Part shown: piece by piece, positions 14,412 through 63,372 of the stretch
How positions within the stretch are numbered: position 1 is the first letter of the stretch
Layout: the number at the start of each line of letters is the position of its first letter
Source: Candidatus Foliamicus sp.
Lineage (GTDB): Bacteria; Pseudomonadota; Gammaproteobacteria; Steroidobacterales; Foliamicaceae
Length of the DNA stretch: 64,000 bases
Reading direction: 5' to 3'
NCBI GenBank assembly: GCA_965249285.1
Contig: OZ252226.1
Coordinates: 1,465,360 to 1,529,359 of the forward strand
Program-made: the position numbers and the translations under genes
The notes under the pieces: model-generated
The model's database searches: none
The model's input: only the letters and a program-made list of their open reading frames with translations
Told to the model about the DNA's origin: nothing

Positions 14412-17243
14412 TTAGGAACCGGTGGCTGCGATCTCGCCGGCGGCTTCAGCCTTGGCCTTGTCGCCGGCGATGAAGATCACGAAATCATCGGCGTTGAGGT
14501 ATTTACGGAACGCTTCGTTGACTTCGTCGAGCGAAAGCGCCCTGTAACGCTCGTGCATCGCTCCATACCACTCGGCATCCAGACCGTGTTCCGCACCGGA
14601 CCGTAAGATTCGCGCCAGGCTGCCGTCGCTGGACCAGGAACTCAGGTCGCTTGAAATGCTGCCGTCCACAGCGTCCTGAAGCTCGTCTGCCGTGAATCCG
14701 TCGTCGAGTGCACGCTGCAATTCTTCCAGGGCCCCGGCCTTGACCTTTACAAGGTTTTCCGGAGCTGCGATGGCGCGCATAGAGAGGCTGCCCTGATCGT
14801 CGCCCACGCGGCGGGACGCGCTCATTCCGCCTCCCGCTCCATACGACCAGCCCTCCTTCTGACGCAGCCGATCAATCAGGCGATTGCTCATCCCGCCGCC
14901 GCCGAAGATCCGTGTGCCAATGGCCAGCGCGGCGTAATCAGCGTCGCGAATGTTCAGCGGAACCGGGAGAGCGGCAATCATGACCCCGTTGGCCTTGTCC
15001 GGGGTATCCAGCCATGCCTGCTGCGACGCCACCGGATGGTGGCTGCTCGGCGCCGGCACGTAGGCGACCGTCGCTTCCCAATCGCCGAACAGTTCATTCA
15101 GGCGCGCTGCCAGGGTAGCGGAATCTATGTTGCCCACGGCCGTTGCAATCGCTCCCTGAAAACCGACGTGCGAGTTCCAGAATTCCGCCAGATCGTCCCG
15201 CTTTATGTTCCGGATCATTTCCTCCTGTTCGTCCAGGTCCAAGGCGTAGCGGAAGTGGCCCGGGCCGTACGGACTCAGCGCCTTGGAAAGGGCGATATTG
15301 GCAACGCTGCCCGGCTGGCCACGGGCCCCGGCCAGGCTCGCCAGCGCGGAGCGCCTGACTTCCTCCAGTTGATCGGAATCGAAAACGGGCTCACGCAGCA
15401 CATGCGCCATCAGCGCAAGCGCTGCATCAAAATTGGCCTCGTCGGTCGTCAGCGTGGCGCTTACTCCCTGTCCGCCGGCGCCAACACCCATGCTGCTCTT
15501 CAAACGGTTCCACTCGGTGGCCAACTTGTCGCGCGTGTAGCGCGTCGTACCACGTTGCAATTGACCAGCTGCATAACCAGAGACGCCTTGTTTGCCGGAC
15601 AGACTTTCCTCGCTGCCGAAGAACAGGTTCAGCGATACAATGATCTGGTCGCCGCGGGATTTCTTCTCGATCGCCCAGAGTGAACCGTCTCCCGCCAACT
15701 CATGCTTGACGGTGCGGGCGGAGATATTCTCAGGCGTGGGAGCAAATTCTTCGCCGGCGCTTACCGATTGCCGTCCCGCCATAGCCGCAAGCTCAACGCT
15801 TTGATCGCCACGCGCGGCAACCATGGCCCGATCCGGGGTTTCGGTGGGAACAAACATGCCGGCGGTGCGATTGCTGCGCTTGAAGTGCTGCACCGCGGCC
15901 GCATTGAGATCTTCCACCGTGAGCGCATCCAGCTGGTCCTTGTAAAGGAACAGATACCGCCAATCTCCCGCGGCGATACTTTCCGAAAGATACGTCGCCA
16001 GCGAGCGGACGCTCTTGATTGCGTTTTCGTAGCCCGAAGAAAGCGCCAACCGGGCCCACTCGAGTTCTTCTTCGGTAATGGGCTCCTCGGCAATGCCTTC
16101 AGCCACCTCCAAAAGGGCGTCCATTACCTGTTGCGCGTCACCGTCCACCGGCACCGTCGCGTTGAACTTGAACAGGCACGGGAAGGCAAACTCTTCAGCT
16201 CTGGCGCTTGCGCCGGCGGCTATGCCCGGTTCCACCAGCTTGCGGTACAGCCGCCCGCGGCTGGAATCGGACAGTATCCGCGCCACCACGCCCAACGCCG
16301 TGTTCTCGTATGTGGCGCCGGACGGAATGTGGTAAGCAGCCATCACCAGGCTCTGCTCTCCAACGCGCCTTAGCGTTACGAGGCGCTCGCCGTCCTGCAC
16401 CGGTTCGACGGTATAAAGGCTCGGCAGTTCCCGTTCGGGCGCCTGCAAGGCGCCGAAGGAGTCGGCGATGATCGCCGCCGTTTCCTTGGGATCGAAATCG
16501 CCGGCCACGATCAAGGTGGCGTTGTCGGGCTGGTAGTACATGCGATAAAAGGCCTGCAGACGCAAGATATCCACGCCCTCTACGTCGGAGCGCGCACCTA
16601 TGGTGGAGTTGCCGTAGTTATGCCATTCGAAGGCTGCGGCCGTTACGCGCTGATTCAACATCCTTCCCGGGCTGTTTTCGCCACGCTCCATCTCATTGCG
16701 CACCACCGAAAATTCGGATTGCAGATCATCATACGAGATATAGGAATTGACCATGCGGTCGGCCTCCATCCGCAAGGCCCATTCCAGGTTGTCATCGGTG
16801 GGTTCGAAGCTCTCGAAGTAATTGGTGCGATCGAGCCAGGTGGTGCCGTTGAAACCCATGCCGCGCTCGGCGAAATCCTTGGGAATTGCGGGATGGTCGG
16901 GAGTGCCCTTGAACAGAAGGTGCTCCAGAAGGTGCGCCATGCCGGTTTCGCCGTAATTCTCGTGCATGGAACCGACGTGGTAGGTAACGTTCACTGTCAC
17001 CCGCGCCTGTGCGCTGTCGGGAAACAGCAGCACCTGCAGGCCGTTGGGCATTGTGTACTCGTGAATACCCTCCACGCTGGTTACGTAATCGAAACCCCCC
17101 TCGCCGCCGGAGAGCCCCAGTGGATCGTCTGCCGCCACTGGATCTTCTGCTACATTCGACAGGGAAGTACAGCTCGATGTCACCACCGCGGATGCCGGCA
17201 GCGCCAGCAACATGACGATCAATCCTTTCCTCAGATTCCTCAT
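14412..17243 (-). CDS. secreted M16 (pitrilysin/insulinase) family zinc peptidase, double-unit
   Basis: 943 aa with an N-terminal signal or lipobox-like sequence (LLALPASAVVTSSC), the inverted zinc motif HLLEHLLF, and two tandem M16 halves. Confidence 0.85.
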   Translation of the reverse strand: MRNLRKGLIVMLLALPASAVVTSSCTSLSNVAEDPVAADDPLGLSGGEGGFDYVTSVEGIHEYTMPNGLQVLLFPDSAQARVTVNVTYHVGSMHENYGETGMAHLLEHLLFKGTPDHPAIPKDFAERGMGFNGTTWLDRTNYFESFEPTDDNLEWALRMEADRMVNSYISYDDLQSEFSVVRNEMERGENSPGRMLNQRVTAAAFEWHNYGNSTIGARSDVEGVDILRLQAFYRMYYQPDNATLIVAGDFDPKETAAIIADSFGALQAPERELPSLYTVEPVQDGERLVTLRRVGEQSLVMAAYHIPSGATYENTALGVVARILSDSSRGRLYRKLVEPGIAAGASARAEEFAFPCLFKFNATVPVDGDAQQVMDALLEVAEGIAEEPITEEELEWARLALSSGYENAIKSVRSLATYLSESIAAGDWRYLFLYKDQLDALTVEDLNAAAVQHFKRSNRTAGMFVPTETPDRAMVAARGDQSVELAAMAGRQSVSAGEEFAPTPENISARTVKHELAGDGSLWAIEKKSRGDQIIVSLNLFFGSEESLSGKQGVSGYAAGQLQRGTTRYTRDKLATEWNRLKSSMGVGAGGQGVSATLTTDEANFDAALALMAHVLREPVFDSDQLEEVRRSALASLAGARGQPGSVANIALSKALSPYGPGHFRYALDLDEQEEMIRNIKRDDLAEFWNSHVGFQGAIATAVGNIDSATLAARLNELFGDWEATVAYVPAPSSHHPVASQQAWLDTPDKANGVMIAALPVPLNIRDADYAALAIGTRIFGGGGMSNRLIDRLRQKEGWSYGAGGGMSASRRVGDDQGSLSMRAIAAPENLVKVKAGALEELQRALDDGFTADELQDAVDGSISSDLSSWSSDGSLARILRSGAEHGLDAEWYGAMHERYRALSLDEVNEAFRKYLNADDFVIFIAGDKAKAEAAGEIAATGS

Positions 17244-21697: not shown

Positions 21698-22486
21698 ATG
21701 ATTTCAGCACGATACCTCGCCGGAATTCTACTTGCGGCAGCAGCCTGCGCCACCCTGGCCGGTTGCGGGCGCGGCGATGAACGCGACGAGCTGTCGGCTG
21801 CCAGCATATTGTATGAACGCGGGCACGCCGCGCTCGAAGGCGGAGACTTCCGCAAGGCGCTCCGGTTCCTTGGTGCATTGAAGTCTCGCTTTCCGTTCAA
21901 CCCGCAAACCCGCCAGGCGCAACTGGAAATCATCTATTGCTTATACAGGCTCAATGACCAGGACAGCGCTGTGGAGGCAGCGCGGGAGTTCGAACGCGAA
22001 AACCCACGCCACCCGAACGTCGATTACGCCATCTACATGCGCGGGTTGGCCTTGTTCGCCCGCCAGCCAGGGCGGTTCGGGCGACTGTTTCGGATTGACT
22101 ACTCCCGCCGTCCCATTCTGACCGCCGGAGAGTCATTTGACGCCTTTACCCAATTGGCCACTCGTTATCCCGAAAGCGAGTATGCCCCCGACGCGCGCCG
22201 ACGGATGGTATTCCTGCGTAACCGGATGGCCCAGTACGAGAATCACGTAGCCGACTATTACTTTCGCCGCGGCGCGTGGGTGGCCGCCGCCAATCGGGCG
22301 CGCTTCGCCGTAGAGAACTACCATGGCTCGCCGGAAGTCGCTCGGTCGCTGAAGATTATGGTGAAGGCGTACCGCAACATCGGGATGGACGACCTGGCCT
22401 CGGATGCCGAGCGCATGCTGGCCGCGAACTTTCCCGGCGAGCAAGTCGACAGCGAGCGGCGCCGGCGCCGGTTTTTCTTCTTCTAG
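21698..22486 (+). CDS. bamD: outer membrane protein assembly factor BamD
   Basis: 262 aa with a lipoprotein signal (LAGCG) and TPR-like repeats. It sits in the yfiO position divergent from rluD. Confidence 0.9.
   Translation: MISARYLAGILLAAAACATLAGCGRGDERDELSAASILYERGHAALEGGDFRKALRFLGALKSRFPFNPQTRQAQLEIIYCLYRLNDQDSAVEAAREFERENPRHPNVDYAIYMRGLALFARQPGRFGRLFRIDYSRRPILTAGESFDAFTQLATRYPESEYAPDARRRMVFLRNRMAQYENHVADYYFRRGAWVAAANRARFAVENYHGSPEVARSLKIMVKAYRNIGMDDLASDAERMLAANFPGEQVDSERRRRRFFFF
22457..22483 (+). terminator. putative intrinsic terminator embedded in the last codons of bamD
   Basis: A 14-nt GC palindrome cggcgccggcgccg (22457-22470) is followed by gtttttcttcttc. It also encodes the odd protein tail RRRRRFFFF. 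Confidence 0.45.
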
Positions 22487-24316: not shown

Positions 24317-24561
24317 AATCGTCGGCGTTGCGCACTGGCGCCCGCGCAGATACTTGCGCCAGCGGCAACACCTATTGCCGAATCTGTTTTCTAATGCGGC
24401 GGAGGAACGCCGGTCTTACCGGATGGATTTCCAAGACAAGAACGCGCCAAGGGTCACATTCCTGATGAATGACCTGATTGCGTACTGCCGCCGGCGCGGT
24501 CTCGGTGCAGCGCTGTGCGCGGCTGCGGCATGGTTCCGCCCGAACCTGGACAAAAATCACA

Positions 24562-26493
24562 ATGAGAAGAATGCTAGTAAACGCCACCCAGCAAGAAGAG
24601 GTGCGCGTTGCTTTGGTCGATGGGCAACAACTTTATGACCTTGCCATTGAACATCGAGAAAAAGAACAAAAGAAAGGCAACATCTACAAGGGGCGCATTG
24701 CGCGAGTAGAACCCAGTCTTGAGGCTGCGTTTGTTGATTTCGGCGCAGAGCGCCACGGTTTTCTCCCCTTAGAGGACATATCCCGCGAGTACTTTCTGGG
24801 GACGCCGGAACCCGGCAAACCCCTGAACATTGCCGAGCTGGTGAAGGAAGGCCAGCAGCTGGTGGTGCAGGTCGAGAAAGACGAGAGGGACAACAAGGGC
24901 GCCGCGCTGAGCACCCTGGTCTCCCTGGCCGGCCGTTACCTGGTACTGAATGCCAACAACCCACGCGGTGGGGGCGTATCCCGCCAGGTCCGAGGCGAGG
25001 ACCGCCAGGCGGTGCAGCAGCGCCTGGGCAACCTCAATATTCCCAAGGGCATGAGCGTAATCATCCGCACCCAGGGTCACGACCGGGGTGGCGAGGAACT
25101 GCAATGGGACCTGGACAACCAGCTGCGGATATGGGAGGCCATCAAGCTCGCAGTGCTGGAGCGCGACGGCCCTTTCCTGGTGGTGCAGGAATCCAACGTG
25201 ATTCTGCGTGCGGTGCGGGACTATCTCTCCGACTCAATCGGGGAAATCGTAGTGGACGACGACGAAGCCTACGAGAGCATCCGCAGTTTCATGAAGCACA
25301 CCATGCCGCACTTTCTGGACCGCCTGCGGCGGCATGAGGACGACGGGCCGCTGTTCAACCGCTACCAGATCGAAAGCCAGATCGACACCGCGTATCGGCG
25401 CCGCGTCAACCTGCCCTCCGGCGGCCAGATCATCATTGACCAGCCGGAGGCCGGCATTTGCATCGACGTCAATTCCGCGCGCGCCACGTCGGCGGAGGAC
25501 ATCGAGCAGACTGCGCTGCAAACCAACCTGGAGGCCGCCGACGAAATCGCCCGTCAGTGCCGGATCCGCGATTTATCGGGGCTGCTGATGATCGACTTTA
25601 TCGATATGCGCTCCGCCGGATCCAACCGGCAGGTGGAGGATCGGCTGCGCCAGGGCACCCGCAACGAACCGGCGCGGATACAGATCGGACAGATTTCGCG
25701 CTTCGGCATCCTGGAAATGTCGCGCCAACGCTTGCGCACGTCGCTGGTCGATACGACTCACGAGACCTGTCCGCGATGCGGCGGTACCGGGCGAATTCGC
25801 GGTGTGGAGTCACTAGGCCTGCACGTGCTGCGGATGATCAGCGAAGAAGCGGGCAAGGAACGCACCTCGAAGGTGGTGGCGGAACTGCCACTGGTTGTGG
25901 CGAACTTTCTTCTGAACGAGAAGCGATCCGCCCTGACGCAAATCGAGGACGTATACATGGTCAGCGTGGTTCTGGTTGCCAATTCCGCCATGGAGACACC
26001 CGAGTTCGCTTTGCGGCGGGTGCGCGACAATACCGATGACGAAACCCCCAGTTACGAATTGGCAACCGTGACGGCCCCGCCCCCTGCCAATCTTGCACCC
26101 AGCCGCGGCAAACCGCCGGAAAAGCCGGCGGTAGAGCGCTCCCTGCCTGATACCGCGCCGCCCGAGCACAAGGCCAAGGCCGCCAAGAAGCCAGACCGCA
26201 AGAAGAAGAAAAAGCCGAAGGTTGGATTTTTTGCTCGTCTGTTCGGGCGGAACAAGAAAAAGAAAACTCCGGCCAGGCAACCTGCCAGGAAGGCTCAGCC
26301 GCAACAACGCTCTCGGCCGCAACGCAAGGCAAAGCAGCCGCCGAAACACCAGGGCGGACCCAGGAACAAGGCGCAGGGCGAATCGCAGGCGCCCCGCCGC
26401 AAGGAATCCGAATCCGGCAACGGTCATCCTCCGCGCAGGCGCAGGCGCAGGCGCCGCAGGCGCCCCGGGAGCGACGCCCCGCCGTCGTCCTGA
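24562..26493 (+). CDS. rne: ribonuclease E (short form, 643 aa)
   Basis: It starts MRRMLVNATQQEEVRVALVDGQQLYDL and has an S1 domain, a DNase I-like domain and the CPRCGGTG zinc link. The basic tail ends in RRRRRRRRRR. I chose the ATG at 24562 rather than 24478. Confidence 0.92.
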   Translation: MRRMLVNATQQEEVRVALVDGQQLYDLAIEHREKEQKKGNIYKGRIARVEPSLEAAFVDFGAERHGFLPLEDISREYFLGTPEPGKPLNIAELVKEGQQLVVQVEKDERDNKGAALSTLVSLAGRYLVLNANNPRGGGVSRQVRGEDRQAVQQRLGNLNIPKGMSVIIRTQGHDRGGEELQWDLDNQLRIWEAIKLAVLERDGPFLVVQESNVILRAVRDYLSDSIGEIVVDDDEAYESIRSFMKHTMPHFLDRLRRHEDDGPLFNRYQIESQIDTAYRRRVNLPSGGQIIIDQPEAGICIDVNSARATSAEDIEQTALQTNLEAADEIARQCRIRDLSGLLMIDFIDMRSAGSNRQVEDRLRQGTRNEPARIQIGQISRFGILEMSRQRLRTSLVDTTHETCPRCGGTGRIRGVESLGLHVLRMISEEAGKERTSKVVAELPLVVANFLLNEKRSALTQIEDVYMVSVVLVANSAMETPEFALRRVRDNTDDETPSYELATVTAPPPANLAPSRGKPPEKPAVERSLPDTAPPEHKAKAAKKPDRKKKKKPKVGFFARLFGRNKKKKTPARQPARKAQPQQRSRPQRKAKQPPKHQGGPRNKAQGESQAPRRKESESGNGHPPRRRRRRRRRRPGSDAPPSS

Positions 26494-46430: not shown

Positions 46431-46726
46431 CGCAAATGCCCCTGTCGGGCTTTCTCTATTGCTGTTCGAAGTTTGACAGTTTGCCTACTTGATCGCAATG
46501 GCCTTCCAATCTTTTGATTTGCCTGACGGGCTGATTCAGAGTACCATGCGGCGCTCACATACTGGCTCGCGATAGCGCGATGCGCCGCTTTGATGCGGTG
46601 CCATGTCCCGGGCAAAACCTTCGAATATTCCCGTTCCGACCGCGCCCGGAGCCGGGCCAAGAACCGCCATATCACGACCGTGCCAGGGACTCCGGCCGCA
46701 CTGTTTGGCGCAGTAAGGATATCCTC

Positions 46727-48010
46727 GTGAACGATAACAAATTCTCAGGCCTCGACCTGGCCGATCCCATACAGCGCGCGCTGGCCGCCCGAGGCCACCT
46801 CGAGCCGACCCCGATCCAGGAACGCGCCATTCCCGAACTGCTGGCCGGCAAGGATCTGCTGGGTATAGCCCAGACCGGCACCGGCAAGACGGCGGCCTTC
46901 GCGCTTCCCATTCTCGACCGGCTTTCGCGCGGTCACGGCAAGAAAGACCGCCGGCGCCCGCGCGCCCTGATTCTAGCGCCCACCCGCGAACTCGCGATCC
47001 AGATCGGCGAAGAAATCCGCGCCTACGCAATTTATCTTCATTTGCGCCATACCGTGATCTTCGGCGGTGTCGGCCAGAAGCCCCAGGTCAGCGCCCTGCG
47101 GCGCGGCGTTGATATTGTGGTCGCCACCCCGGGCCGGCTGCTTGATCTCATGGACCAAGGCTGGCTGAGACTCGGCGCGGTTGAAGTCCTGGTGCTGGAT
47201 GAAGCAGACCGCATGCTCGACATGGGTTTCGTGCGCGACGTCCGAAAGATTATCGGGGCCGTGCCCGCCGACCGCCAATCGCTGCTGTTTTCGGCCACCA
47301 TGCCCACCGAGGTTGCCCGTCTTTCGCGCACCATTCTGACCAATCCCGTGCTTGTTGAAGTAACACCGCGGGCCACGCCGGTCGCGCTCGTTGAACAGCT
47401 CGTCTATCACGTCGGCGCGCGGAAGAAGCTGGCCTTGCTGAACGGTATCCTGGAGGATCCGGCGCTGTCCCGGGTCCTGGTGTTTTCCCGCACCAAGCAT
47501 CGCGCCAACAGGATCACGGAGAAGCTCGGCAAGGCCGGGGTGAGCGTTGACGTAATCCACGGGAACAAGTCCCAAAGCAGCCGCCAGCGGGCCTTGAAAC
47601 GGTTCCGCGCCGGCCAGGTGCGCGTCCTGGTCGCAACCGACATCGCCGCCCGCGGCATCGATGTCGAGGGCGTCACCCATGTCATCAACTTTGAGTTGCC
47701 CAACGAGCCGGAAAGTTACGTCCACCGCATCGGCCGCACTGCGCGGGCGGGGGCCGGCGGATTTGCATTGTCGTTCTGCGATCCCACGGAACGGGCCTAT
47801 CTCAGCTCCATCGAACGCCTGATCCGCCACCGGCTGACGGTGGCCGGAGACGGTGTGACGCCCGCGCTGCCGAACAAGGCGGAAATGACCGGGAAGCATT
47901 CGCGCCGGCCCCGGCGCAACGGCGGCGCCCGCAACCAGCGCCGGGACCGGGCGGCAGCGCCGAATGCCGGCGCCATGAGGTTCCCCCGGGACCTCCCAGC
48001 CTCCGCCTGA
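46727..48010 (+). CDS. rhlE: ATP-dependent DEAD-box RNA helicase (RhlE-like)
   Basis: Q motif, [15 protein letters not shown] and [10 protein letters not shown], with a basic C-terminal tail. I chose the GTG at 46727, preceded by TAAGGA. A roughly 290-nt upstream untranslated gap precedes it. Confidence 0.88.
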
Positions 48011-48071: not shown

Positions 48072-53139
<5,068 letters not shown>

Positions 53140-54152: not shown

Positions 54153-56579
54153 TTACGCCTTGACGCGGCGGCGGCGGCGTGGGCGCCTTGGTTCCTCGCC
54201 GTCGGTCGCTTCGCTCCCTCCCTCAAGGCCGCGCATGGTCAGCCGGATACGACCGCGACCATCCACTTCCATTACCCGAACGTTAACGCTGTCGCCCACG
54301 CTGAGCACGTCGCTGGTGCGCTCAATGCGCCGGTCCGACATTTGCGAGATATGCACCAGGCCGTCAGTACCCGGAAGGACGGTGACGAACGCGCCGTAGT
54401 CCATGACGCTGGATACGGTGCCTTCATAAGCCTTGCCGACCTCAATCTCCTGAACCCGGCTGCGGCTTGCGCCCCTGGGTTGGGAATCTTCCGTTTCGCC
54501 GTCGAGATTACGCATACTCAGCCGGATGCGCCCCTGGCGGTCTACCTCCAGGACCTTGACCTGGACGGAATCGCCTTCCGCAAGCCGGTCGCTGACTTGA
54601 TCCACTCGTTCGTCGGAGATCTGCGAAATGTGCACCAGGCCGTCCTTGCCCGGAACAATGGTGACAAAAGCGCCAAAGTCCATCAGGCGGGCCACCTTGC
54701 CGTCGTACACCTGGCCTACTTCAACGTCGGCGGTAATCAATTCGATTCTTCTGCGCGCTTCACGCCCGGCCTCGCCGTCAACGGAGGCGATCTTCACCGT
54801 GCCGTCGTCCTCAATGTTGATTTCCGCGCCGGTTTCCTCGGTGATGGAGCGGATCACCGCGCCGCCCTTGCCGATCACGTCGCCGATCTTCTCGCGGTCG
54901 ATCTGCATGGTGAAGATCGAGGGGGCCCAGTCCGACATCTCCTTCCGGGACGCGGAAATCACTTCGCTCATCTCGCTTAAGATGTGCAGCCGCGCAACGC
55001 GGGCCTGCTCCAGCGCCTCGGCCATGATGTCGCGCGTAATTCCGTCTATCTTGATGTCCATCTGCAGAGCGCTGATTCCCTCCTCGGCGCCGGCCACCTT
55101 GAAGTCCATGTCACCGAGGTGATCTTCGTCTCCCAGGATGTCGGTCAGGACCGCGTGGCGGTCGTCGTCCTTGATCAGGCCCATGGCGATACCGGCCACC
55201 GGCGCCTTCAATTTCACTCCGGCGTCCATCAGCGCCAGGCTGGCGCCGCACACGCTGGCCATGGAGCTGGAACCATTCGATTCGGTAATTTCCGAGACCA
55301 GGCGAATCACATAAGGGAACTCGTCCATTGCAGGCAGCACCGCTGATATGCCGCGCCGGGCAAGCCGGCCATGACCGATTTCGCGCCGTTTGGGGCCGGT
55401 CATGAAGCCGGTCTCACCCACCGAATACGGCGGGAAGTTGTAATGCAGCATGAAGCGGTCGCGGGTGGTGCCATCCAGGGCCTCGACGATCTGTGCGTCA
55501 CGGTCGGTCCCCAGGGTGGCGGTCACCAGGGCCTGGGTCTCGCCACGGGTGAACAGCGCCGAACCGTGGGTCCGCGGCAGCACTCCCACCTCGATGTCCA
55601 GGCCACGGACCGTGAAATTGTCACGCCCGTCAATACGCGGATCGCCCGACAGCACCCGCTGGCGCACCAGGCGCTTCTCCAGATTCTTGAGCGCGGACGA
55701 AATTTCCTGCAACTGAGCAGGTGCGGCGTCCTCCGGAGCCAGTTCCTCGGCCACCCGCGAGCGAATCTCACCCAGGCGCTCAGTTCGCTGGACCTTCTCC
55801 GTGATGCTGTAGGCTTCTGCAAGATCCTGCTCGGCGATCCGGGCCACCTCGGCCGCAAGATCATCGTTCGCAGGCGCGGCCTGCCATTCCCAGGCAGGCT
55901 TGCCGGCCTCGGCAGCGAATTCCTTGATGACTTCAATCGCCGTTTGCATCTGCTCGTGCCCGAACAGCACCGCGTTGAGCATGATCTCTTCGGACAACAG
56001 GTCCGCTTCGGATTCCACCATCAGCACCGCGCTCTCGGTCCCGGCGACCACCAGGTTCAGCTTGGAGGAAGCCAGTTCCGTGGCAGTAGGATTGACAACA
56101 TATTCTTCGTCTATCCATGCCACGCGGGCGGCGCCGATCGGTCCGGCGCAAGGCAGGCCGGACAGGGCCATCGCCGCGAACGCGCCCAGCATGGACGGAA
56201 TGTCCGGATCAACCTCCTGGTTGTTGGACAGCACCGTGGCAATGACTTGAACATCATGAAAGAAGCCCTTGGGAAACATGGGCCTTAAGGGGCGGTCAAT
56301 CAAGCGGCAGGTCAGCGTTTCCTTTTCCGTGGGACGCCCTTCGCGGCGGAAAAAACCTCCGGGAATGCGGCCCGCGGCGTAGGTCTTCTCCTGATAGTTC
56401 ACTGTCAGCGGCAAAAAGCCGCGACTGGGGTCGGCCTTCCTGGCGCCGACAACGGTAACGAGCACCACCGTCTCCGACATGCTCACCACCACCGCGCCGT
56501 CCGCCTGACGCGCCATCTTTCCTGTTTCCAGCGTTACCGTGTGGCTGCCATACTGGAATTCTTTGTTTACGATAGACAC
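54153..56579 (-). CDS. pnp: polyribonucleotide nucleotidyltransferase (PNPase) with a duplicated C-terminal S1 domain
   Basis: 808 aa from a GTG start. It has two RNase PH domains, a KH domain ([14 protein letters not shown]), then two S1 units (aa 620-692 and 713-785) and an [11 protein letters not shown] tail. Confidence 0.97.
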
Positions 56580-56760: not shown

Positions 56761-57030
56761 TCAGCGACGCAGGCCGAGGCGGGAAATCAGCGTGGCATAG
56801 CGCTCCTGATCCCTGCCCCGCAAATACTTGAGGAGCCGCCGACGGCGATTGACCATCCGCAGCAAGCCACTGCGTGAGTGGTGATCCTGCTTGTGTGCAT
56901 GGAAATGGCCGGACAACGCGTTAATGCGCGCCGACAGCAGCGCAACCTGCACTTCGGCGGACCCAGTGTCCGCCGAACCGCGCTGATACTCATGCACGGT
57001 TGCGCTAATATCACTTGAGTTAAGTGGCAT
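56761..57030 (-). CDS. rpsO: 30S ribosomal protein S15
   Basis: 89 aa with ...[44 protein letters not shown]. Confidence 0.97.
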
Positions 57031-63295: not shown

Positions 63296-63372
63296 TGGTA
63301 GCGGGGACAGGATTTGAACCTGTGACCTTCGGGTTATGAGCCCGACGAGCTGCCTGACTGCTCCACCCCGCA
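63296..63372 (-). tRNA. metY: initiator tRNA-fMet (anticodon CAT)
   Basis: The 77-nt cloverleaf is collinear with E. coli tRNA-fMet. It has the CUCAUAA anticodon loop, three consecutive G:C pairs closing the anticodon stem, A11:U24, an unpaired 1:72 position and an encoded CCA. It occupies the metY position upstream of rimP-nusA-infB. Confidence 0.9.

Follow-up and report, generated by a model that had tools for sequence, protein, structure and literature searches.

A polynucleotide phosphorylase with two C-terminal S1 domains and an arginine-rich tail in the Candidatus Foliamicus clade of Gammaproteobacteria

The gene described here is pnp, encoding polynucleotide phosphorylase (PNPase), in a stretch of 64,000 nucleotides from Candidatus Foliamicus sp. 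(contig OZ252226.1, positions 1,465,360 to 1,529,359), referred to below as the window and numbered from its first letter. PNPase is among the best-studied enzymes of RNA decay, and its KH-S1 cap controls substrate capture, autoregulation and the handling of small RNAs and Hfq. To our knowledge, every solved PNPase structure has one S1 domain per subunit. In the open reading frame (ORF) list of the window, pnp lies on the reverse strand with a GTG start and encodes 808 amino acids (aa). The layout of its product departs from the canonical one of KH plus one S1, in that the KH domain is followed by two S1 domains, here called S1a and S1b, which are joined by a linker and followed by an arginine-rich tail. 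The features of the gene are given below with their window coordinates.

54153..56579, reverse strand: pnp coding sequence, 808 codons, stop at 54153-54155, identified by PNPase equivalogs and the rpsO-pnp context
54945..56579, reverse strand: catalytic core, aa 1-545 (RNase PH 1, alpha-helical PNPase domain, RNase PH 2), from Pfam, the AlphaFold2 model and omega
54741..54914, reverse strand: KH domain, aa 556-613 (Pfam KH_1 at 1.9e-12)
54504..54722, reverse strand: S1a, the conserved and probably ancestral S1 domain, aa 620-692 (best Pfam S1 stretch, 619-690)
54444..54503, reverse strand: inter-S1 linker, aa 693-712, acidic then basic, predicted disordered
54225..54443, reverse strand: S1b, the second and probably derived S1 domain, aa 713-785 (second Pfam S1 stretch)
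54156..54224, reverse strand: C-terminal tail, aa 786-808, an acidic stretch and then an arginine-rich end, predicted disordered
54165..54188, reverse strand: arginine-rich motif RRPRRRRR, aa 798-805 (R4-R6 run kept in clade tails)

Assignment of the product to the PNPase family rests on its core. Pfam recovers RNase_PH twice, RNase_PH_C twice, the PNPase domain (PF03726), KH_1 and two S1 stretches, and the PNPase equivalogs of NCBIfam score about twice their cutoffs (TIGR03591, 1146.6 bits against 525.05; NF008805, 1114.3 bits against 471). Their alignments are confined to aa 6-691 of 808, that of TIGR03591 covering aa 9-691 only, and because the equivalog alignment stops at aa 691, the residues past S1a (the last ~116 aa) are extra to the canonical protein. 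In the full-length AlphaFold2 (AF2) model, the mean predicted local distance difference test score (pLDDT) is 80 and the catalytic core lies mostly at 80-96. By every sequence criterion but the canonical domain count, the window protein is a PNPase, a family member by its core and an architectural variant by its C-terminus.

The Pfam S1 family (PF00575) matches in two stretches (3.4e-38 overall), and a local hmmsearch puts the S1 domains at 618-693 and 711-786. Aligned without gaps, S1a and S1b are identical at 46 of 73 positions (63%), with 62 of 73 positives and E = 3e-35, a likeness far beyond chance. The similarity spans 80 aa (aa 618-697 against 711-790), running past the S1 core into the acidic tail segment, and at the DNA level 144 of 219 nucleotides are identical, that is, 34% differ. 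A preliminary description of this DNA had proposed an 808-aa PNPase with two S1 domains after KH and had suggested a domain scan as a check; Pfam supports two S1 folds, and Pfam, hmmsearch, AF2 and Foldseek agree on two S1 domains. The intervals it had assigned to them, nt 54504-54722 and 54225-54443, translate exactly to the peptides that it quoted, its figure of 46/73 identities is reproduced by the ungapped alignment, and the acidic/basic linker of 20 aa and the arginine-rich tail of 23 aa are both as it described, so that all its figures hold. Two matters treated below go beyond that description, namely the multi-S1 PNPases of other lineages and the compact, poly-Arg RNase E of the clade.

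The full-length AF2 model shows aa 711-785 as a barrel of five strands (pLDDT 77-85) with the strand order of S1a (E717-725, E729-735, E738-743, E764-772 and E778-781, the same pattern as in S1a). When a model of S1b by itself was searched with Foldseek, the top match was the KH-S1 region of E. coli PNPase (6qh2, E 4e-8, root mean square deviation (rmsd) 2.2 A over 72 columns, 53% identity), the second and third were YabR and GSP13, and 1sro was matched with a template modelling (TM) score of 0.73, normalised to the target. Matches of S1b to solved S1 domains had a probability of 1.00 and an rmsd of 2.0-2.8 A. Domain-by-domain sequence comparison with the PDB points the same way, with PNPase S1 domains best at 78-82 bits and 53% identity (6d6k 82, 1sro 79.5), ahead of GSP13 (2k4k; 58 bits, 39% identity) and of the best ribosomal S1 domain (46 bits). 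From sequence and models, S1b is identified as an S1 domain of PNPase type, with a predicted S1/OB fold.

Two other identities were considered for S1b. An origin in the stand-alone CvfD/Ygs/GSP13/YabR family was rejected on the scores just given, PNPase S1 reaching 78-82 bits against 58 for GSP13. The CvfD/Ygs/GSP13 model NF040579 does score 126 bits against a cutoff of 117 for the whole PNPase, but it passes only because both S1 domains sum, and its best stretch is S1a. Ribosomal bS1 (rpsA) was also rejected, the best model, NF005208, reaching 167 bits against a cutoff of 368 and the other rpsA models falling far under theirs.

The E. coli register of the S1 contact residues follows the 1sro sequence and agrees with the numbering of PMC6832287. 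In E. coli, the RNA-binding site of PNPase S1 is made of the surface residues F19, F22, H34, D64 and R68 (PMC6832287). The corresponding positions are F635, F638, H650, D680 and R684 in S1a and Y728, F731, H743, D773 and R777 in S1b, so that five are kept, one of them by a conservative F>Y change. More widely, at 41 of the 73 S1 positions the two copies share one residue, conserved to at least 95% in each.

The linker (aa 694-709) and the tail (aa 786-808) have a pLDDT below 50 in the AF2 model and are for this reason predicted to be disordered. Linker length in the clade that carries this form ranges from 20 to 28 aa, with indels always in frame. Its first residues, NLDGE..., correspond to NLEDDAA, the short acidic tail that closes the proteins of single-S1 relatives; an acidic stretch recurs after S1b. 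The tails of the clade are 18-33 aa long, variable in sequence and of mean net charge +4.4. A run of R4-R6 is present in 35/35 parsed clade tails (R5 in 30/35) and absent from 82 single-S1 relatives, whose tails extend 3-7 aa past S1.

To map how widespread the form is, as the preliminary description had proposed, a search space of 5.8 billion proteins was used, together with a genome survey of GTDB species representatives. Double-S1 PNPases form 37 protein clusters of 805-829 aa and 84-100% identity, all with the long C-terminus, many of them on contigs of 2-4.8 Mb that include complete chromosomes; the next-best matches below them, at 73% identity and 693-707 aa, have a single S1. Among the genomes, double-S1 pnp is complete in five species (L001-L004 and L006) and cut by the contig end in a sixth locus (L005), and the 74 other related loci have one S1 each. 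The reading frame is intact in all five complete genomic copies and up to the contig end in L005, despite indels in linker and tail. The closest named genome is the complete chromosome OZ242252.1 of Candidatus Foliamicus sp. (Gammaproteobacteria, order Ca. Foliamicales), and no case of S1b loss was found among members of the double-S1 clade. Three loci that seemed to be double-S1 genes from tblastn match length (L016, L032 and L052) were rejected, direct S1 mapping showing a single S1, as was the protein P0038 as a long form, its 827 aa being made up of a single S1 and an N-terminal extension. The double-S1 form occurs in a single gammaproteobacterial clade only, and the unrelated multi-S1 PNPases found elsewhere are parallels of independent origin.

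These parallels were found by an exhaustive HMMER search with the KH-S1a-linker-S1b-tail segment, which finds multi-S1 PNPases but gives no basis for counting them, because domain scores add up and multi-S1 ribosomal proteins dominate the output. A clade of three-S1 PNPases comprises about 15 clusters (P0147, P0294-P0307, P0274, P0192) of 906-988 aa; the single-S1 proteins closest to it carry the annotation Myxococcota or Bradymonadia, and it is for this reason taken as an independent S1 multiplication. Another protein, P0154, has 983 aa, three S1 domains and long Ser/Glu/Lys-rich linkers, and its gene (L082 5001-7952, forward strand) lies in an infB-rbfA-truB-rpsO-pnp context. Two-S1 PNPases also occur elsewhere in metagenomes (P0202/P0266/P0278, P0222), and in GCA_001684015.1 (L081 1391-3915, forward strand) the pnp that follows rpsO and encodes a two-S1 C-terminus (P0278) is broken up into four ORFs in a row, either a pseudogene or the product of assembly frameshift errors. 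Since the extra S1 domains of other lineages do not group with S1b, S1 multiplication in PNPase happened several times; the multi-S1 architecture is rare but recurrent.

Selection was measured by pairwise Nei-Gojobori comparison of the window and the five genomes, with omega as the ratio of nonsynonymous to synonymous divergence. Omega is 0.09-0.11 in the catalytic core, 0.03-0.13 in the KH region (aa 546-615, slightly wider than the domain), 0.01-0.04 in S1a, about 0.3 in the linker and 0.24-0.60 in the tail. For S1b it is 0.04-0.10 at a synonymous divergence (dS) of 0.65-1.3, and constraint on S1b is therefore about as strong as on the catalytic core. Synonymous divergence between S1a and S1b is saturated (dS about 1.67). 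In a bootstrapped neighbour-joining tree of a subsample of 67 S1 domains, S1b is monophyletic (100%), S1a and the single S1 domains of related Gammaproteobacteria form a group that leaves out S1b (80%), and S1a, S1b and single-S1 relatives stand together against other multi-S1 PNPases (78%). The preliminary description had called the duplication old and maintained, and both points are borne out, the first by a paralogue dS of about 1.7 and by the monophyly of S1b orthologues over the clade, the second by the low omega of S1b.

The two copies have not changed equally. Identity to the S1 of other PNPases (gammaproteobacterial relatives) is 78-96% for S1a and 60-68% for S1b, which is 63% identical to its own S1a. 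At 10 positions that are at least 95% conserved within each copy and differ between the copies, the single-S1 consensus equals S1a at 9. These comparisons indicate that S1b is the derived copy and that S1a kept the ancestral sequence. The simplest reading of the sequences would be an ancestral tandem duplication of the S1 domain and the start of the tail, rapid divergence of the distal copy and later appearance of the arginine-rich end. The architecture of this PNPase and its history, taken together, are regarded as very nearly certain.

The surroundings of the gene are those of an ordinary chromosomal pnp locus of a proteobacterium. On the same strand and upstream of pnp lie tRNA-Met, rimP, nusA, infB, rbfA, truB and rpsO, and downstream lie dksA, queF, smc and ligA. 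The gene next to pnp is the following.

56761..57030, reverse strand: rpsO (ribosomal protein S15), directly upstream of pnp (TIGR00952, 114 bits)

The G+C content of the window is 60-67%, scans around pnp found no promoters or terminators, and the tRNA was the only match of the Rfam scan. This tRNA-Met (CAT anticodon, window 63296-63372, reverse strand) stands directly upstream of rimP-nusA-infB, a position that resembles that of metY in E. coli. Downstream, the SMC protein (window 50113-53139, reverse strand; 1008 aa) gives three separate matches to the 1181-position SMC_prok_B profile, and because the profile is matched in three separate stretches over 1008 aa, its coiled-coil arms look shortened. 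A peptidase of the M16 family (insulinase-like; 943 aa, window 14412-17243, reverse strand) had no NCBIfam match at E <= 1e-20. In one of the single-S1 relatives, an rpsA-like multi-S1 gene (L057 9694-10700, forward strand; four S1 matches of 34-42% identity) lies about 3.6 kb downstream of pnp.

In known PNPases, single-stranded RNA is first bound, reversibly, by the KH and S1 domains, which are placed over the central channel of the trimer (PMC6832287, PMC9181182). On this background, the following course of events and mechanism are proposed. A single housekeeping pnp gene would have undergone, in the clade ancestor, a tandem duplication of its C-terminal S1 and of the first residues of the short acidic tail, the upstream copy, S1a, keeping the ancestral sequence and the downstream copy, S1b, diverging fast before coming under strong purifying selection. 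S1b, with an RNA-binding face that appears intact by its residues, would be attached to the KH-S1a cap by a disordered tether of 20-28 residues and would be followed by a disordered tail closing in 4-6 arginines. A PNPase trimer would thus carry three additional mobile S1 domains and three polycationic tails above its channel entrance. Such arms and tails could raise the local concentration of RNA, the reach of the enzyme and the avidity with which single-stranded RNA is captured, and a captured 3' end would then be passed to the canonical KH-S1a ring and the phosphorolytic core. The preliminary description had likewise expected six S1 domains per trimer to change RNA capture at the pore entrance, which is a reasonable inference from the known architecture of PNPase. 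Among the explanations considered, this one is the most economical. For the statement as a whole, a tandem-duplicated and selected S1b with an arginine tail that adds RNA capture at the trimer channel, mechanism included, the probability is put at roughly 0.6.

Several points weigh against this proposal. RNA binding by S1b and the tail is deduced from conserved residues and charge, and some of that charge has changed, since S1b has exchanged three basic residues that never vary in S1a or in single-S1 PNPases (R631>S, K645>T and, in most members, K628>T); the binding properties of S1b, or its partner, may therefore differ. The AF2 model is a monomer without a domain-domain confidence map and does not set the placement of S1b relative to the channel. 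Confidence in the stand-alone model of aa 700-808 is modest, with a mean pLDDT of 60 (57-79 inside the S1b domain), the mean being low because 40% of the fragment is disordered, and this model was used for fold assignment only, alongside the full-length one. Moreover, a neighbour-joining tree on 73 residues does not separate duplication within the lineage followed by acceleration from gain of the S1 via another gammaproteobacterial pnp.

A different role for the same module has to be considered, in which S1b and the tail would act mainly in protein interaction or regulation within a rearranged degradosome, rather than as a simple catcher of RNA. It draws on the RNase E encoded in the window.

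24478..26493, forward strand: rne ORF, probable start at 24562 (M29), compact RNase E of 643 aa
26434..26463, forward strand: R10 run of RNase E, 9 residues from the C-terminus

It is supposed here that the compact RNase E lost its long scaffold and that contact between the enzymes is made via poly-Arg and acidic segments. For example, PNPase might be the docking site of the RNase E R10 run, as in cyanobacteria, or the arginine tail of PNPase might bind RNase E, RNA condensates or the acidic linker of PNPase itself. The match of the window RNase E to the E. coli-type profile NF008074 covers positions 1-648 of 1068, and the only Pfam domains are S1, RNase_E_G and a Thio-like domain. In a non-catalytic region of about 130 aa, it has a conserved PEKPAVERSLPDTAPP motif, an amphipathic GFFARLFG segment, a Lys/Arg-rich stretch and R10, after which comes a short neutral tail. 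Such compactness is shared by all RNase E homologues of the clade (about 640-690 aa, with all 43 clusters falling at 572-703 aa), as against 741-1049 aa in most other relatives, and many of these clusters lie on contigs matching in size those with double-S1 pnp. Within the final 40 aa of RNase E, 8 or more consecutive arginines were found in 40/42 clade clusters and in 1/77 relatives, the one being a clade-like fragment. It is also known that the compact RNase E of cyanobacteria recruits PNPase via a near-terminal nonapeptide, RRRRRRSSA, a demonstrated PNPase-recognition site (PMC3964918). Within the window, C-terminal runs of at least 5 arginines occur in 3 of 44 predicted proteins, namely RNase E, PNPase and a BamD homologue, and the fact that S1b lacks basic residues present without exception in other PNPase S1 domains would be in keeping with an interaction role. 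Altogether, the co-occurrence of double-S1 pnp and compact poly-Arg RNase E suggests, as a correlation within a single lineage, that the degradosome of the clade was rearranged.

However, that co-occurrence comes from one evolutionary lineage (n = 1), and an interaction between the two enzymes is conjectural. S1b retains the canonical RNA-contact residues, which favours RNA binding. RNase E compaction alone is not unique to the clade, because six relatives with single-digit arginine runs also have an RNase E of about 685-692 aa. Moreover, the neutral SSA is critical in the cyanobacterial motif, and the residues that follow the arginine run here are of the form P-G/A-x (PGSDAPPSS, PAADAPPPS or similar), neutral but of a motif that differs from SSA. 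RNase E is a possible functional partner of the double-S1 PNPase, and a mainly protein-interacting S1b is considered unlikely.

A wider version, in which the whole degradosome would have been re-partitioned, is held to be slightly less likely still. RNase E would here have shed its scaffold, losing the arginine-rich RNA-binding segments and partner sites and keeping a membrane-anchor-like helix and the terminal R10, while PNPase gained the tethered S1b and the oligo-Arg tail. The R10, convergent with RRRRRRSSA, would recruit PNPase by docking on its acidic linker and tail or on S1b, and the independent two- and three-S1 PNPases would be repeated solutions to the same problem. Two neighbours may be mentioned beside these enzymes. 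A DEAD-box RNA helicase of RhlE type (476 aa, window 46580-48010, forward strand) lies 6 kb from pnp and is a possible degradosome helicase, the RNase E here being without a long scaffold, and the BamD homologue (window 21698-22486, forward strand) has an ...ERRRRRFFFF tail past the end of its family profile.

With regard to origin rather than role, the proposal of an internal duplication competes with the idea that S1b was acquired by fusion with a separate S1 gene, of GSP13/CvfD/YabR type or a ribosomal S1 fragment, or was recombined from a foreign pnp. The branching of S1b outside the group of S1a and single-S1 relatives would fit such a gain, as would its being as near to other gammaproteobacterial S1 domains (60-68%) as to its own S1a (63%), but near-equal distance to all PNPase S1 domains is also what is expected of a fast copy that split from a very slow parent. 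YabR and GSP13 do stand second and third among the Foldseek matches and the CvfD/Ygs/GSP13 model does reach 126 bits for the whole protein, yet that score sums both S1 domains with its best stretch in S1a, and domain by domain PNPase S1 (78-82 bits, 53%) comes ahead of GSP13 (58 bits, 39%) and ribosomal S1 (at most 46 bits). The likeness to S1a also continues past the S1 core into the acidic tail segment, and G+C at third codon positions (GC3) is identical, at 0.74, in both copies. Acquisition from outside is accordingly rated as improbable, well below the alternatives already discussed.

It might also be supposed that S1b is a neutral or decaying appendage without function, as the fast evolution of the flanking linker and tail (omega 0.24-0.6) could hint; this is highly improbable, given an omega in S1b equal to that of the catalytic core, 41 of 73 positions at which both copies keep the same residue at 95% or more, contact residues that are kept and no clade member without S1b. 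Tandem repeats are prone to misassembly, but a collapsed or expanded repeat or a stop read-through is excluded for practical purposes, because the copies differ at 34% of nucleotides, too much to confuse an assembler, and because the 37 clusters come from many independent assemblies (chromosomes of 2.5-4.8 Mb, orthologous copies diverged) and the frame is uninterrupted in several genomes, five complete and one truncated (L005), as the preliminary description had held in saying that the duplication was not an assembly artefact.

As yet undescribed, the double-S1 PNPase with its oligo-Arg tail departs modestly from a well-known enzyme; it appears to be a simple domain duplication, for which parallels exist, and a function in RNA capture would be plausible. 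Two S1 domains per subunit under selection, together with the independent three-S1 forms, amount to a natural experiment on what S1 copy number and tethering mean for affinity, processivity and substrate choice. If the changes in PNPase and RNase E are linked, they would show degradosome functions moving between subunits in evolution; if they are not, the gene is a tidy case of domain duplication with asymmetric divergence in an essential pathway. The repeated origins and the co-occurring poly-Arg RNase E would make these bacteria a useful natural system for the study of RNA capture by degradosomes.

In the literature searched, no description of a PNPase with C-terminal tandem S1 domains was found, the nearest being the seed-plant mitochondrial enzyme with an additional N-terminal S1. 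Searches for Foliamicus, Foliamicales and Foliamicaceae found no literature, and the papers found on UBA10353 had no established link to the clade. Some isolate names (SB0673, CAR4, CO36388) hint that the genomes may stem from sponge metagenomes, a point on which nothing here depends.

Compared with canonical PNPases (E. coli Pnp of 711 aa, PDB 3cdi, 7ogk and 1sro; Caulobacter 4aim), the window protein shares the two RNase PH domains, the helical domain, KH, S1 and the rpsO-pnp context, and differs by about 116 added C-terminal residues, which comprise a predicted disordered linker, a second S1 and the arginine-rich tail. The other multi-S1 PNPases resemble it in having extra S1 domains after the canonical KH-S1, low-complexity linkers and genuine rpsO-pnp genes, whereas their linkers are longer, the terminal arginine run is absent and they belong to different phyla or lineages. 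In seed-plant mitochondrial PNPase, an additional S1 has been found bioinformatically (PMC9181182), but it is N-terminal and the enzyme is a eukaryotic, organellar one. Ribosomal bS1 offers a parallel in its tandem S1 domains on flexible linkers that capture single-stranded RNA, and S1b has the DYGAFV motif typical of bS1 domain 3; bS1, however, is without a catalytic core, and S1b taken as a domain is nearer to PNPase S1.

Two further comparisons concern the arginine runs. Like the cyanobacterial RNase E-PNPase complex, the clade has a compact RNase E with poly-Arg near its C-terminus (R8-R10 and a short neutral tail), but the host is gammaproteobacterial, the residues after the arginine run are others, PNPase itself carries an arginine run, and the resemblance is one of sequence. 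Gammaproteobacterial RNase E scaffolds are reported to contain the arginine-rich RNA-binding segments AR1, AR2 and AR4 (PMC9860253, PMC11964227). The segments are short, polycationic and disordered, like the arginine tail of the PNPase described here, and bind RNA next to decay enzymes; they lie in the long C-terminal domain of RNase E, whereas in the Foliamicus clade, with its short RNase E scaffold, it is PNPase that closes in a comparable segment.

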